From IMG/VR virus record IMGVR_UViG_2547132488_000021, positions 1-4,227 of that record: a stretch of 4,227 nucleotides of DNA; one strand, written 5' to 3'. The notes under the pieces were generated by a model. It saw nothing but the letters and a program-made list of their open reading frames with translations. It did not search any database and was not told where the DNA came from. Numbering within the stretch: the stretch's first letter is position 1; every line of letters starts with the position of its first letter. The DNA comes from a virus (lineage: Duplodnaviria; Heunggongvirae; Uroviricota; Caudoviricetes). The position numbers and the translations under genes were made by a program. Shown here one piece after another: positions 1 through 4,227 of the stretch.

Positions 1-416
1 TTAGCCCCTGTGCTTTTCAAACATCCAAACAGAAATACTCCAAATTGTTTTTCAGAAGAAAATGCAGAGAGACATGTAAAAGCAATAGACTCATCAAAAA
101 TTTCTATGTATTCAGCACAGTGATTAGCCCAACTAATTAATCCTTTAATTAAACTGAAGTCAGCAAAGTTTATTTTTAAATAAGATGGATATTCCCTACA
201 ATCAGAAATATCCCTTAAGTTATTAGCTTTCAAATAGCGACTAATAAACTCAGCGCCAAAATCCGCCACTATCACTCTTTCAGGATATGTCAGGAAAAAA
301 TCTCTAGAGCTAGAGTCGACAAGTACAGATGAACCTCTCTCCAGAAACACACTCTCTTTTCCGAAATAAACATCAAAGGACTCCAAAATCAATATAACTG
401 AACATGTAGTTGCCAT
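1..416 (-). CDS. Hypothetical protein, N-terminal part only (gene continues beyond the left window edge); function unknown
   Basis: My own translation of the minus strand: ATG at 416..414, then an uninterrupted frame of about 138 codons down to position 3 with no stop (MATTCSVILILESFDVYFGKESVFLERGSSVLVDSSSRDFFLTYPERVIVADFGAEF...). The frame is open back to a stop at 468..470. An open frame this long in very AT-rich DNA is unlikely by chance. A GGGCGGA purine-rich stretch lies a few nt upstream of the ATG on the minus strand. Absent from the supplied ORF track, presumably because its stop is outside the window. No family recognised. Confidence 0.45.
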   Translation of the reverse strand, partial: MATTCSVILILESFDVYFGKESVFLERGSSVLVDSSSRDFFLTYPERVIVADFGAEFISRYLKANNLRDISDCREYPSYLKINFADFSLIKGLISWANHCAEYIEIFDESIAFTCLSAFSSEKQFGVFLFGCLKSTGA

Positions 417-997
417 ATCATCCGCCCAATTTAACTGAAACCAGGATGAAGTATATGTATATAAAGTTCACTTTGCCAAACTTCAATATAAAAAACCACT
501 AAAAATAGGGTGTGATAAAAAATACCGTAACAATAAAGCAAAGGATTATAAATTCCGTTACAGTTACAAATGATACTCAAGAAACAATTCCTTAGGAAAA
601 ACTTATTTACAGCCAATAAGTAAGACACTTATATGATATCAAGTTTTCATAAAACATAACTAGGCTAAATAGCTGCGCCTAATACCGCTACACTTTTGCC
701 AGCCCATGTTTGCCTCCGGGTATTGACCCCTTCTCTACGCAACTTCAGTTCCCACCACCAACTTTGCGGCAGCTTTGTAGGATCAATGTCTAAAAGAATA
801 ATGGTGACCGATAAGAAAACGACTGAATAACTGCAGATTTTCGCTCGAAACCTTCCTGTCAGATCCATAGCGAATCAAGTGCTGAATGTCACAGTATCGA
901 ACAGAAAACAGTGACGATCTAACCCTTCAAGAATATTCTACGATTGTTCTGTTTAGGAAAAGCAAGGCGGGAAGTCGGGAGATAAGTCATTGATAAA

Positions 998-1026
998 GTG
1001 GCGGAGAGAGGGGGATTTGCCCCCCC
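998..1026 (-). other. tRNA 3'-end-like motif: T-arm-like hairpin, 7 nt, G, CCA; possible decayed attachment-site relic
   Basis: Minus strand reads GGGGG-GGCAAAT-CCCCC-TCTCTCC-G-CCA: a 5-bp G/C stem with a 7-nt loop matching the T-loop consensus at 5 of 7 positions (GG in place of TT), then exactly 7 nt, a discriminator position and CCA at canonical tRNA spacing. No matching 5' acceptor strand or D/anticodon arms upstream, so it is at most an orphan 3' fragment. Confidence 0.3.
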
Positions 1027-1044
1027 GGTAGAGTTGCCCCTACT

Positions 1045-1061
1045 CCGGTTTTCGAGACCGG
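1045..1061. other. Second GC-rich hairpin (CCGGT-TTTCGAG-ACCGG) in the AT-rich spacer
   Basis: Perfect 5-bp stem with a 7-nt loop, 18 bp from the first hairpin. No U-run on either strand, so not a classical intrinsic terminator. Confidence 0.3.
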
Positions 1062-1144
1062 TCCAATCATCAAACGAAACATAAAATTAATTCACATTAT
1101 GAGGAAAAGTATCTTTTTTGTACTATGTAAATTCAAAGACTTAG

Positions 1145-2014
<870 letters not shown>

Positions 2015-2074
2015 GTCTTTAAGTGATAAGCATAAACCGCAGCACGATCTTCTTGCATACGACGTGCTACGGTT

Positions 2075-2629
2075 TCATTTATCTCCGACCGGAAACTTCT
2101 TATACAGTGTCGATATACCAACATCATAGATGATCGCCACCTTTTGGCGAGGAACGCCTGATGCAATTAATCGCCCGGCCTGCGCCCATTGTTCTGGTGT
2201 AAGTTTGGGACGACATCCACCAATTCGTCCCTGTGCGCGAGCTGCTTCCAGTCCAGCTTTTGTTCGTTCAACAATCAGTTCACGCTCCATTTCAGCCAGG
2301 GCACCCATCACATGAAAGAAAAAGCGCCCCATTGGGGTACTGGTATCAATTGAATCCGTCAGACTACGAAAGTTGATGCCTCGTTCGCGCAACTCCTCCA
2401 CCAGCACGACAAGATGCCGCATACTGCGCCCCAGTCGGTCCAGTTTCCAGACCACCAGCGTGTCACCTGCCGATAATGTCCTGAGCAGCTTTTTCAGTCC
2501 TGGTCTGTCGGACTTTGTACCGCTTATCTTGTCTTCAAAAATCAGCTCACATCCTGCACACTCCAGCGCATTACGCTGTAATTCCGTATTCTGGTTATTT
2601 GTTGATACGCGGACATAGCCAATAAGCAT
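2075..2629 (-). CDS. pin: Serine-recombinase DNA invertase, Gin/Pin/Hin/Cin family
   Basis: Translation MLIGYVRVSTNNQNTELQRNALECAGCELIFEDKISG...GDTLVVWKLDRLGRSMRHL...INFRSLTDSIDTSTPMGRFFFHVMGALAEMERELIVERTKAGLEAARAQGRIGG...VAIIYDVGISTLYKKFP has the catalytic serine in the VRVST motif, the resolvase/invertase catalytic core, and a C-terminal helix-turn-helix. Start placed at ATG 2629..2627 (protein begins MLIGY as in known invertases) with AGGGGGA 6 nt upstream; the track's longer ORF from ATG 2665 adds 12 unconserved residues. The symbol is by family analogy, not a verified ortholog. Confidence 0.93.
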   Translation of the reverse strand: MLIGYVRVSTNNQNTELQRNALECAGCELIFEDKISGTKSDRPGLKKLLRTLSAGDTLVVWKLDRLGRSMRHLVVLVEELRERGINFRSLTDSIDTSTPMGRFFFHVMGALAEMERELIVERTKAGLEAARAQGRIGGCRPKLTPEQWAQAGRLIASGVPRQKVAIIYDVGISTLYKKFPVGDK

Positions 2630-2709
2630 GTTAAATCCCCCTGGTAAAAGCAGGAATGATGCCATTTGCTTGTTATTTCTTCATTTTCATAAACGTTGGT
2701 TTGGGAGAA
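2630..2709 (-). promoter_or_regulatory. Invertase leader: ribosome-binding site and probable promoter, overlapping the crossover site
   Basis: Minus-strand sequence upstream of the invertase ATG reads ...TATGAAAATGAAGAAATAACAAGCAAATGGCATCATTCCTGCTTTTACCAGGGGGATTTAAC-ATG. The SD is clear; the -35/-10 hexamers cannot be assigned confidently by eye. Only 54 bp separate the start codon from the crossover site, so promoter elements must overlap or lie within the site. Confidence 0.4.
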
Positions 2710-3063
2710 GCAGCAAAACGGAATGTAGGTAACGGGCAAAACCAAATTCCGGATATGGCGGCGTTTGCCAGTTCACTTTCATCAACGGGTTTTCAAAAAC
2801 TCCCTTCAGGTCTGATTATTCAGTGGGGTATTGTCAGTGGAGCATCAAACTATACGGTGACTTACCCGGTAACATTCCCAAATCGTTCACTTGCGCTGTT
2901 GGCTGTGCCACATACAACGTCGGTGGCTGGTATATCTGCAATGGGAATAGCGAACTGTTCTGATATCAGCAAATCACAGTTCTATATAATTGTTGGCGGT
3001 ATATCTCAGGGAGAAATTGTCAAATATGAAAGGTCCTGTTTTTGGGTAGCAATCGGTGTATAG
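2656..3063 (+). CDS. Tail-fibre variable C-terminal cassette, silent orientation
   Basis: Track ORF ending ...SCFWVAIGV. It shares LIIQWG and the terminal AIGV with the opposite cassette. The functional cassette begins at 2710, just inside the crossover site; the ATG at 2656 lies outside the segment in the invertase leader and is probably fortuitous. No tail-fibre N-terminal constant region is attached in this orientation. Confidence 0.65.
   Translation: MMPFACYFFIFINVGLGEAAKRNVGNGQNQIPDMAAFASSLSSTGFQKLPSGLIIQWGIVSGASNYTVTYPVTFPNRSLALLAVPHTTSVAGISAMGIANCSDISKSQFYIIVGGISQGEIVKYERSCFWVAIGV
2684..2709. repeat. Left recombination crossover site (gix/hix/cix/pix-like, 26 bp) bounding the invertible segment
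   Basis: TTTTCATAAACG-TT-GGTTTGGGAGAA: two imperfect 12-bp half-sites around a 2-bp core, with the AAAC/GGTTT inner pattern of invertase crossover sites as I recall them (for example gix TTCCTGTAAACCGAGGTTTTGGATAA). Its reverse complement starts TTCTCCCAAACCAA, which is exactly the last 14 bp of the window. Confidence 0.7.
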
Positions 3064-3071
3064 GTATATCT

Positions 3072-3467
3072 ATGATTTATTTCTCAAAATCGACTAATGG
3101 TTTTTTCTTTGATGGTATAAACAGCGACATGCCTGCTGACATTGTTGAGATAAGTACAGACTTATACAATGAATTAATTGCCGGACAGCAGGAAGGGGGT
3201 AAATTAATCACGTCAGATGAAAATGGTTTACCGGTACTGAAATCTCCGGCGATTGATTATGTCGCACGTGCTGAAAATCAGCGAATGCAGTTACTTGCTC
3301 ATGCCGATAATGTCACAGCTGACTGGCGGGTGGAGTTAATGCTTGGTGATATCAGCAGTACAGATAAAGAAAAACTATCTGCCTGGATGGACTACAAAAA
3401 AGAAGTAAAAGCCGTCGACACTTCGACGGCTCCTGAGATTAGCTGGCCTGAGTTACCGGAGGTGTAG
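3072..3467 (+). CDS. Tail-fibre assembly protein (Tfa chaperone) paired with the silent cassette
   Basis: MIYFSKSTNGFFFDG...AWMDYKKEVKAVDTSTAPEISWPELPEV: conserved Tfa C-terminal signature (VDTS-AP-I-WP--P). ATG at 3072 has AGGT 6 nt upstream; the track ORF starts at a TTG (3042) overlapping the cassette's end. It starts 9 nt after the cassette stop, consistent with co-expression. Confidence 0.85.
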   Translation: MIYFSKSTNGFFFDGINSDMPADIVEISTDLYNELIAGQQEGGKLITSDENGLPVLKSPAIDYVARAENQRMQLLAHADNVTADWRVELMLGDISSTDKEKLSAWMDYKKEVKAVDTSTAPEISWPELPEV

Positions 3468-3876
3468 GCCATTCAATATCTGGAGCACTGGAGGTATCCA
3501 CCAGTTCCAGTGCGTCCAGGTAATCCAGCCACAAATTATATTGCGCCAGTTCCTCACCTTTCAGACGACCAATAGCCGCTTTACCGGGCCATTGTTTATT
3601 GTTCATGTATTCGTTGGCCTGGTTAAGCAATAATTGCCTTTCTGATTCTGCCTGTTGAATAAGTTCTTCATGTGATGGTGGAGGTATCAGTGCCCATGTG
3701 GGTAATCCATTCTCTCCTGCAACACGAATTTTGCCATCTGGGGGCGTATTTATTGCAAATTCATTATAAACATCATCACTGACAGCCAGAGCATCATCTG
3801 GCCATGAATTTGCATTAATGTAATCATCCTTAAGTGCAGGATTCACAAAAATGTTTAAAGATGGACTATAAAACAT
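3439..3876 (-). CDS. Tail-fibre assembly protein (Tfa chaperone) paired with the cassette in the expressed orientation
   Basis: MFYSPSLNIF...EELIQQAESERQLLLNQANEYM...YNLWLDYLDALELVDTSSAPDIEWPTPPVTQAS: Tfa-family C-terminal signature. ATG at 3876..3874 with a GGGGTG SD-like motif upstream, 1 nt after the stop of the upstream cassette (3878-3880). Confidence 0.88.
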   Translation of the reverse strand: MFYSPSLNIFVNPALKDDYINANSWPDDALAVSDDVYNEFAINTPPDGKIRVAGENGLPTWALIPPPSHEELIQQAESERQLLLNQANEYMNNKQWPGKAAIGRLKGEELAQYNLWLDYLDALELVDTSSAPDIEWPTPPVTQAS

Positions 3877-3877
3877 A

Positions 3878-4227
3878 TTACACCCCTATAGCGATATAAC
3901 GACCTAATACAGCGTTTGCAGCAGTCGCTATGCTTGAAAAACCGCGGAACTGATTTGATGTAATTGCAGAAGCCGACAGGATTCCTGCGCCTGAAGGTGT
4001 ATGCCCCACATGACTAACTATCATTCCATAACATGCTGACGGAAAGGCAAAAGGAAAATCATTAAGATATCCGGCATCTTCACCACCAGACCCACCAAAT
4101 CTCGCCTGCCCCCACTGAATAATCAGTGTTCTCCGGGAACCTGAAATAATTAACGGAATCGTTACATACCCATTCAGACCAATGACACCCGATGCAGTGC
4201 CAGCCAGAGATAATTCTCCCAAACCAA
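3878..4227 (-). CDS. Tail-fibre protein, C-terminal portion (partial; gene continues beyond the right window edge)
   Basis: Minus-strand frame open from the window edge to the stop at 3878..3880; translation ...LGELSLAGTASGVIGLNGYVTIPLIISGSRRTLIIQWGQARFGG...AVLGRYIAIGV. The frame reads through the right crossover half-site as L-G-E, the same residues and phase encoded by the left site on the plus strand (2701-2709). The track's initial M is really a TTG inside the crossover site, not a start. Confidence 0.8.
   Translation of the reverse strand, partial: GLGELSLAGTASGVIGLNGYVTIPLIISGSRRTLIIQWGQARFGGSGGEDAGYLNDFPFAFPSACYGMIVSHVGHTPSGAGILSASAITSNQFRGFSSIATAANAVLGRYIAIGV

Follow-up and report, generated by a model that had tools for sequence, protein, structure and literature searches.

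The window, which is the whole 4,227-nt stretch of viral DNA that was analysed, is almost certainly the invertase end of an e14-like E. coli prophage with a classical P-inversion switch. The inverted repeat flagged in the original prediction was confirmed as the two crossover sites of an e14-type Pin DNA-inversion switch. Each of the two opposed tail-fibre-tip cassettes had a copy of the site exactly at its start, with a serine invertase gene adjoining.

The pixR-type site on the invertase side was 26 bp long (2684-2709, unstranded; TTTTCATAAACGTTGGTTTGGGAGAA) and was assigned by its identity to pixR and by an isomer breakpoint. It contained an outer half-site (2684-2695), the core dinucleotide TT (2696-2697), and an inner half-site (2698-2709). 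Its reverse complement, TTCTCCCAAACCAACGTTTATGAAAA, was identical to published pixR (26/26) and to the K-12 e14 sequence, while identity to sites of other inversion systems was 20/26 for hixL, 19/26 for cix, and 17/26 for gix. The visible part of the pixL-type site (4214-4227, unstranded; TTCTCCCAAACCAA) contained the inner half-site (4214-4225) and the core AA (4226-4227), and matched the first 14 nt of pixL at 14/14 positions. The pixR and pixL reference sequences were those in Table 3 of PMC3241671, and sequence comparison found the same pix sites in K-12 e14. The window is itself an entire contig, and its end coincides precisely with the core.

Complementarity between 2696-2709 and 4214-4227 was 14/14, as expected from the perfect 14-base inverted repeat that had been proposed. 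The next 12 bases on the inner sides, GCAGCAAAACGG and TTATCTCTGGCT, agreed at only 2/12 positions; therefore, the repeat ends at the inner edge of the site, which was also part of that proposal. The outer pixL half-site falls past the contig end at position 4227, and both it and the fibre constant region were taken from identical or near-identical contigs outside the window. A public contig that was 100% identical to all 4227 bases (L011) continued with GGTTTTCGAGAG, completing pixL at 26/26 positions, and the same continuation was present in the sequences L001 and L004. The original prediction would have been given up if the sequence past 4227 did not continue as the reverse complement of the left site. 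The site was completed, but the 12 bases of GGTTTTCGAGAG agreed with the expected CGTTTATGAAAA at only 7/12 positions. That refutation was mis-specified, and the 7/12 outer match leaves the site standing, because the two sites of a pair normally have different outer half-sites in this family (hixL/R, cixL/R, pixL/R). The two half-sites agreed at 8/12 positions within the left site and at 9/12 positions within the completed right site. With cores TT (left) and AA (right) in inverted orientation, the pair had the form of Din-family sites: two inverted 26-bp imperfect palindromes with identical, asymmetric 2-bp cores.

By itself, a perfect inverted repeat of 14 nt is not unusual: 7% of 300 shuffles of the 4.2 kb contained at least one. 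The half-site-plus-core pattern TTCYCCYAAACCAA occurred twice against 0.13 expected occurrences (two or more in 0/200 shuffles), and the 25-nt Din-family consensus matched once against 0.04 expected. A search of the window for a third crossover site, as in Min-like multiple inversion, found none with two to three mismatches allowed. Membership in the shufflon (Rci) or Min systems was rejected, since there were only two sites and the recombinase was of the serine type and not the tyrosine type. ARAGORN found no tRNA in the window, and Rfam gave only sub-threshold matches there.

A complete E. coli genome, CP049845.1 (L004), was an exact inversion isomer of the window. Positions 1-2709 of the window were collinear with it at 100% identity, while positions 2691-4227 matched it in reverse complement (1536/1537), the sole mismatch being at 2695. 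Exchange was therefore confined to the 14 bp at 2696-2709. The crossover had been described as mapped to the base pair; the isomer places the exchange within these 14 bp, but any finer position is masked by the 14 bases identical at both sites. By analogy with Gin/Hin/Cin biochemistry and the annotated P1 crossover, exchange probably takes place on the central TT, and cleavage, as elsewhere in the family, would be a 2-bp stagger at the central dinucleotide. A longer, 17-nt perfect inverted repeat (2812-2828 / 4110-4126), coding for the LIIQWG motif common to both cassettes, was also considered as a crossover and was rejected given the isomer breakpoints at 2696-2709.

Among the 5,426 complete E. 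coli genomes surveyed, cassette A adjoined pin in 55 and was fused to the constant part of the fibre in 14; cassette B adjoined pin in 46 and was fused to the constant part in 24. Both orientations were present among carriers of an identical Pin protein. Several draft assemblies with the same Pin allele had a terminal k-mer starting exactly at the core: three contigs (L015, L016, and L017) had the last core base exactly 127 nt from their end, and in a SPAdes-named metagenome contig this distance was exactly 55 nt. Contig ends anchored at the core are expected from a branch in the assembly graph, and suggest mixed orientations in the sequenced cultures. The adjoining contig in GCA_000357685.2 would be expected to start with GGTTTTCGAGAGCCG. 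The DNA between the sites thus inverts, as in the Din family, according to the natural isomer, the orientations found in genomes, and the contig-end k-mers. For the K-12 P segment, experimental inversion at TTGGTTTGGGAGAAGG by both PinE and PinQ is reported (PMC12529663).

The segment carried two opposed cassettes. Cassette A, a variable tail-fibre C-terminus (2710-3063, plus strand; Pfam Gp53-like_C, E = 1.7e-15), lay on the pin side in the window orientation, separate from the fibre constant part, and was followed by its tail-fibre assembly chaperone (3072-3467, plus strand; Pfam Caudo_TAP, E = 1.8e-24). Cassette B, also a variable C-terminus (3878-4213, minus strand; Pfam Gp53-like_C, E = 1e-12), was read from the constant part past 4227, with its own chaperone at 3439-3876 (minus strand; Pfam Caudo_TAP, E = 1.7e-34). 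The cassettes were only 35% identical to each other, over 65 aa, and the chaperones were 29% identical. Directly 3' of the cassette B chaperone stop was a putative terminator (3407-3434, minus strand), a consensus match to a hairpin with a 12-bp stem followed by a T-run.

The inner half-site, GGT TTG GGA GAA, encoded Gly-Leu-Gly-Glu in an identical phase in both cassettes, and contained the Leu-Gly-Glu of the original prediction as a subset. The core TT formed positions 2-3 of the preceding codon, which read GTT where the site faces pin and CTT (Leu) where it faces the constant part. The constant part of the fibre was 98 aa long and ended in ...ALENLGLGE. The fusion with cassette B was intact (212 aa) in L001 and in L011, and the fusion with cassette A was intact (218 aa) in the L004 isomer. 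Both fusion genes were thus intact in real genomes, which bears out the claim of an in-frame fusion in either orientation; together with the isomer breakpoints, they place the joint inside the tail-fibre coding sequence, as had been proposed. The codon phase of the site was the same in Mu S, P1 S, and e14 (...N/Y-Leu-Gly-Leu-x-Glu). On the pin side, a leader, MMPFACYFFIFINV-GLGE (2656-2709, plus strand), keeps the pin-facing cassette in an open frame. It corresponds to the start of 'stfE' in K-12, with zero differences in the leader DNA. RefSeq lists the pin-side cassette as a stand-alone gene.

The pin gene (2075-2629, minus strand) encoded a small serine DNA invertase of 184 aa with the Pfam domains Resolvase (PF00239, E = 1e-51) and HTH_7 (PF02796, E = 6e-11). 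Pin was 94% identical to K-12 PinE, 82% to Cin, and 77% to Gin, and its best match among solved structures was Gin (3uj3, E = 1e-92). The column of Ser9, which we take to be the catalytic serine, was invariant across six aligned invertases, including PinE, Gin, and Cin. A resolvase domain, an HTH domain, and the conserved Ser, as in Din-family recombinases, were therefore all present in Pin. Neither a promoter between pin and the site nor a promoter-like match for pin came out of a sigma-70 scan, which overall gave fewer sites than in shuffles.

A putative Fis-dependent recombinational enhancer was placed by homology at 2540-2611 (minus strand), within pin codons 7-30. The Cin enhancer is annotated at cin nt 19-90 in the P1 record, and the pin stretch was identical to it at 56/72 positions, a value confounded by the fact that these bases are also under protein-coding constraint. 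Two G-N13-C 15-mers occurred at pin nt 22-36 and 71-85, 49 bp apart, one of them a strict and the other a loose Fis-core-like match. Because the strict Fis consensus was matched by only one 15-mer in the enhancer homologue, the enhancer is kept here as a candidate.

In the proposed mechanism, Pin dimers would bind the two inverted 26-bp imperfect palindromes, pixR at 2684-2709 and pixL from 4214, and the pix sites would assemble into an invertasome with the enhancer, bound by Fis, in the 5' part of pin; a requirement for Fis and for the enhancer is expected from the family. The segment of ~1.53 kb would then invert. The frame is kept because a Leu codon takes its positions 2-3 from the core, and because Gly-Leu-Gly-Glu is encoded by the inner half-site (12 bp) in both cassettes. 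In the window orientation, the short tail fibre therefore has its constant N-terminal part of 98 aa joined in frame to cassette B; once the segment has inverted, cassette A takes this place. An assembly chaperone of its own follows each cassette. The outcome is alternation of receptor-binding tips and, going by related systems, presumably of host range.

Residue 139 of Pin was Cys (codon 2213-2215), while Arg occupied this position in K-12 PinE, L001, L002, Gin, and Cin, and in gamma-delta resolvase the aligned residue was also Arg. When the 1HCR alignment is extended without gaps, position 139 corresponds to Hin Arg140, the residue of the minor-groove arm. A literature search on Hin Arg140 found nothing relevant. 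The Cys139 allele was rare, occurring in 14 contigs, while its Arg parent occurred in at least 1000. Pin with Arg139Cys may thus be weakened, with inversion possibly driven in trans. A stronger form of this view, that the pix sites are real but that Pin is crippled, so that another Din-family invertase of the genome inverts the segment in trans or the switch is freezing, accords with the conserved Arg, with the rarity of the Cys allele, and with a report of PinQ inverting the e14 P segment in trans (PMC12529663). It is rather unlikely, however, given that both orientations, as well as contig ends from mixed cultures, were found among carriers of the exact Cys139 allele. Switching therefore went on after the mutation, driven by the resident Pin or by another invertase. 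Another rival reading, that the 14-bp repeat is a mere Gly-Leu-Gly-Glu coding motif of paralogous cassettes and that the inversion is RecA-dependent or an assembly artefact, could draw on the 17-nt repeat, which is exactly such a motif, and on the shuffles in which a 14-nt inverted repeat arose somewhere. This was refuted by the isomer breakpoints, which lay away from the 17-nt repeat, and it retains next to no probability: 14 bp is shorter than the homology length required by RecA, the site is a full 26/26 match to published pix and adjoins an invertase gene, and inversion at this repeat was demonstrated experimentally in K-12 (PMC12529663).

A further question is which product matters. The pin-side ORF was open in both isomers (135 aa at 2656-3063 in the window and 128 aa, in the cassette B version, in L004), its leader DNA was that of K-12, and K-12 e14 StfE2 is reported to block T2 adsorption (PMC12529663). 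These points would agree with a free tip protein from the leader ORF as the main output, blocking the adsorption of other phages, with phage host range secondary. We regard this as improbable. The leader had poor ribosome-binding-site spacing, and a good Shine-Dalgarno spacing and a promoter match were both looked for at the leader and neither was found; the L002 leader carried two substitutions, both non-synonymous; and the cassettes were unlike those of K-12. In the relatives, moreover, the prophage appears to have a full gene set (integrase, lysis, head, contractile tail, and baseplate), and therefore a host-range role in the virion is the simplest reading. Similarly doubtful is the combined proposal of two outputs and independence from the own invertase, with a free tip made from the 18-codon leader and flipping despite Cys139. 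If it were true, the unjoined cassette would yield a free receptor-binding tip that excludes other phages, as for StfE2 and here with two different tips, and flipping without the arm arginine would mean either that the invertase of another prophage acts in trans or that Arg139 is dispensable.

The Pin/pix tail-fibre switch in the window is an already known textbook system and holds no new mechanism. Descriptions of such sites in Mu, P1, and e14, including their location in coding sequence and their in-frame design, go back to the 1980s. The value of the window is mainly practical, as a clean example in which a tail-fibre gene beside a small serine invertase stands for two protein isoforms. Only one tail-fibre isoform is visible per assembly, and breaks in draft assemblies tend to fall precisely on the core of such inversion sites.

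No record in the phage collection covered at least 80% of the module; the best was Escherichia phage Cartapus, with 92% identity over 67% of the query. The P-segment inversion system of the cryptic prophage e14 of K-12 (GenBank X01805) was reportedly described by Plasterk and van de Putte in 1985. The window resembles it in pixR and pixL (each 26/26), Pin (94% identical), the constant fibre N-terminus, the pin-side leader ORF, and the gene order ymfQ, fibre, invertible segment, pin; the constant region and ymfQ were found in L001, L004, and L011. In contrast to K-12, the cassettes are other alleles than the StfP and StfE tips, the segment is ~1.53 kb and not 1797 bp, the perfect repeat is 14 bp and not 16 bp, a LEM-3-like GIY-YIG gene and not mcrA lies beside pin, the relatives' prophage is apparently complete while e14 is truncated, and Pin carries Arg139Cys.

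The G segment of Mu (Gin/gix) likewise has its invertase gene outside the segment, two opposed tip-plus-chaperone cassettes, and a crossover in the fibre gene with identical codon phase (IQN-L-GLQE), but differs in its core (GA in Mu, AA here), site identity (17/26), invertase (77% identical), segment length (3 kb), and the long constant part of the Mu fibre. The C segment of P1 (Cin/cix) shares the architecture, codon phase (IQY-L-GLRE), and core AA, and its record annotates an enhancer inside the 5' end of cin and a crossover in the middle of cix; it differs in its sites (19/26 identical), its invertase (Cin, 82% identical), and its segment length (4.2 kb). Hin/hix of Salmonella, a system of Fis- and enhancer-dependent flagellar phase variation, has the same recombinase family, 26-bp site design, and AA core (hixL 20/26), but Hin inversion moves a promoter and not coding cassettes, and the hin gene is located within the segment. 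Min of p15B has tail-fibre cassettes and sites of the same family (13/14 over half-site plus core), but shuffles several cassettes through six sites, whereas the window has only two sites.

The observation of crossover sites within tail-fibre coding sequence was borne out, and its interpretation was essentially right. In reverse complement, positions 2684-2709 (TTTTCATAAACGTTGGTTTGGGAGAA) were identical at 26 of 26 positions to pixR, and the last 14 bases of the window (TTCTCCCAAACCAA; 4214-4227) were identical to the first 14 nt of pixL, as given in the table of Din-family target sites (Table 3, PMC3241671). Identity with hix, gix, cix and mix sites was 16-20 of 26 positions. Positions 2696-2709 and 4214-4227 were perfectly complementary and the repeat ended at the inner site edge, where the adjacent inner bases matched at only 2 of 12 positions. 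By itself a 14-nt inverted repeat was not very improbable, being present somewhere in 4.2 kb in 7% of shuffles; specific site patterns were much less likely by chance. The half-site-plus-core pattern occurred twice (0.13 expected; two in no shuffle) and the Din consensus once (0.04 expected). Both site copies fell exactly at cassette starts, adjoining the invertase gene. A longer perfect inverted repeat of 17 nt (2812-2828 and 4110-4126) was rejected as the breakpoint; it encodes LIIQWG, common to both tips.

The invertase gene, pin (2075-2629, minus strand), encodes a small serine recombinase of 184 aa with Resolvase and HTH_7 domains; it shares 94% identity with PinE from e14, a cryptic prophage of K-12. 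Directly adjoining pin were two opposed cassettes, each pairing a tail-fibre tip (Gp53-like_C) with an assembly chaperone (Caudo_TAP). Cassette A comprises the tip at 2710-3063 and the chaperone at 3072-3467 (plus strand), and cassette B the tip at 3878-4213 and the chaperone at 3439-3876 (minus strand). The cassettes are distant paralogues, with identity of 35% across 65 aa between the tips and 29% between the chaperones. The chaperone genes were convergent with a 29-bp overlap (3439-3467), and a terminator-like hairpin with a 12-bp stem (3434-3407, minus strand) lay past the cassette B chaperone stop, within the cassette A chaperone coding sequence. Within pin, positions 2540-2611 were identical at 56 of 72 positions to the Cin enhancer annotated at cin nt 19-90 in the P1 record, and contained two G-N13-C 15-mers 49 bp apart. 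Because this stretch overlaps strongly conserved codons, the likeness can only suggest a putative recombinational enhancer.

The window corresponds end to end to WGS contig APZX01000174.1 (GCA_000357685.2). Logan contig SRR27430355_54, identical to the window at 4227 of 4227 positions, ran on past 4227 as GGTTTTCGAGAGCCG, completing pixL at 26 of 26 positions; two further loci, the close relative L001 and the Escherichia coli chromosome L004, had the same continuation. The original prediction had counted as refutation a right outer half-site that was not the reverse complement of the left. Taken literally this was found (7 of 12 positions matched), yet the expectation was mis-specified, because the outer half-sites are unlike each other in hix, cix and pix alike (PMC3241671).

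Comparison with L004 (E. coli UPEC-245U/190328, CP049845.1) provided an inversion isomer. Window positions 1-2709 were collinear and 100% identical, and 2691-4227 matched as the reverse complement at 1536 of 1537 positions, the sole mismatch being at 2695, where the pin side has G and the constant side has C. The window and L004 therefore differ by one inversion, with exchange inside the 14 identical bases 2696-2709. Of the claim that the crossover was mapped to the base pair, confinement between 2695|2696 and 2709|2710 stood; finer placement is indirect. Din-family recombinases make 2-bp staggered cleavages. This cleavage mode, the pseudo-dyad symmetry of the site and the crossover annotated at the centre of cix in the P1 record would place the exchange at the central TT (2696-2697). 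Junction probes run against 5,426 complete genomes recovered both states: cassette A adjoined pin in 55 genomes and was fused to the constant part in 14, and cassette B adjoined pin in 46 and was fused in 24. In K-12, inversion occurs at TTGGTTTGGGAGAAGG, by PinE and by PinQ; approximately 30% of a wild-type culture was in the inverted state, and of 562 genomes surveyed, 33% had the P segment inverted (PMC12529663).

Another arrangement was seen in GCA_054573715.1 (JBTNJS010000018.1; locus L012, 1077-1104), where the pin/GIY-YIG/AraC flank and cassette B were joined via an identical TTGGTTTGGGAGAA to a P2-type tail fibre of 509 aa. The fibre junction read …LTYLGLGE-GSALPVG… and the outer half-site differed (TCTTCTCACATACC). 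Two prophages may have exchanged DNA at the crossover site, or the locus may be a mosaic of another kind.

The inner half-site was read in the same phase, as Gly-Leu-Gly-Glu, in both cassettes. The predicted in-frame fusion in either orientation was seen as intact genes: 212 aa in SRR27430355_54 (constant N-terminus and cassette B) and 218 aa in L004 (constant part and cassette A). In Mu S, P1 S, K-12 StfP and the fibres of the window locus alike, the site began on the second base of a codon, so that the core invariably supplies bases 2 and 3 of a Leu codon (IQN-L-GLQE in Mu S, IQY-L-GLRE in P1 S, LEN-L-GLGE here). The in-frame design is thus a property of the whole family and not particular to this locus. 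On the pin side, a hydrophobic 18-codon leader (MMPFACYFFIFINVGLGE) held the cassette in an open frame (2656-3063, plus strand); this ORF (2656-2709 plus cassette) was open in both isomers and had weak ribosome-binding and promoter signals. RefSeq annotates such pin-side ORFs as stand-alone 'gp53-like' genes; in K-12 the copy is labelled pseudogene stfE.

The Pin of the window had Cys at residue 139 (codon 2213-2215, in the GGRRPK arm), a position at which PinE, Gin, Cin and two close relatives all have Arg and with which an Arg of gamma-delta resolvase aligns. By extrapolation, residue 139 would correspond to Hin Arg140, the minor-groove arm residue. The Cys139 allele was rare (14 contigs versus at least 1000 with the Arg parent). 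Among carriers of the identical Pin, cassette A adjoined pin in the window, L011 and L015, and cassette B in L010, L012, L014 and L016-L019.

Contig ends were observed at window 4227 and in loci L015-L018. Measured from the final core base, the contig end lay precisely 127 nt away in L015, L016 and L017 and precisely 55 nt away in a metagenome contig that has a SPAdes-style name and the same Pin allele; the window contig stopped right at the final base of the pixL core. Since 127 and 55 are common largest SPAdes k-mer sizes, each terminal k-mer has its start right at the core. With only 14 bp, the repeat falls far short of k and so cannot by itself branch the assembly graph; a branch at the core k-mer means that both flanks precede the same cassette sequence. 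Mixed orientations in the sequenced cultures are the likely cause, and a duplicated cassette is less likely. The right end of the window is only suggestive of mixed orientations, because its pin-side junction was unbroken. Given both orientations among Cys139 carriers together with the contig ends, switching appears to continue in this lineage, with either the resident Pin or a trans-acting invertase as its driver.

In L004 the module lay at the end of an apparently complete prophage of ~38 kb with an integrase at tRNA-Thr, a LexA-like repressor, and lysis, terminase, portal, capsid, contractile tail and baseplate genes. The simplest role of the switch is alternation of virion host range. Left of pin, the window contained a LEM-3-like GIY-YIG nuclease-domain gene (1241-2014, plus strand), a truncated tRNA-Ser copy and a partial AraC-family gene. 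The tRNA-Ser fragment (990-1064, minus strand, 75 nt) was 97% identical to an annotated E. coli tRNA-Ser gene and was not called as a tRNA by ARAGORN; an integrated element probably left it behind as a partial duplicate of att type.

The window system is the already-described e14 Pin/pix system with different tip alleles; K-12 e14 has the same two pix sites. In K-12 the restriction gene mcrA adjoins pin, whereas the GIY-YIG gene has that position in the window, which suggests that the prophage end beside pin is a variable cargo or defence slot. The equivalent pin-side fusion of K-12 is credited with phage exclusion, its inverted version StfE2 being claimed to block T2 adsorption (2025, PMC12529663).
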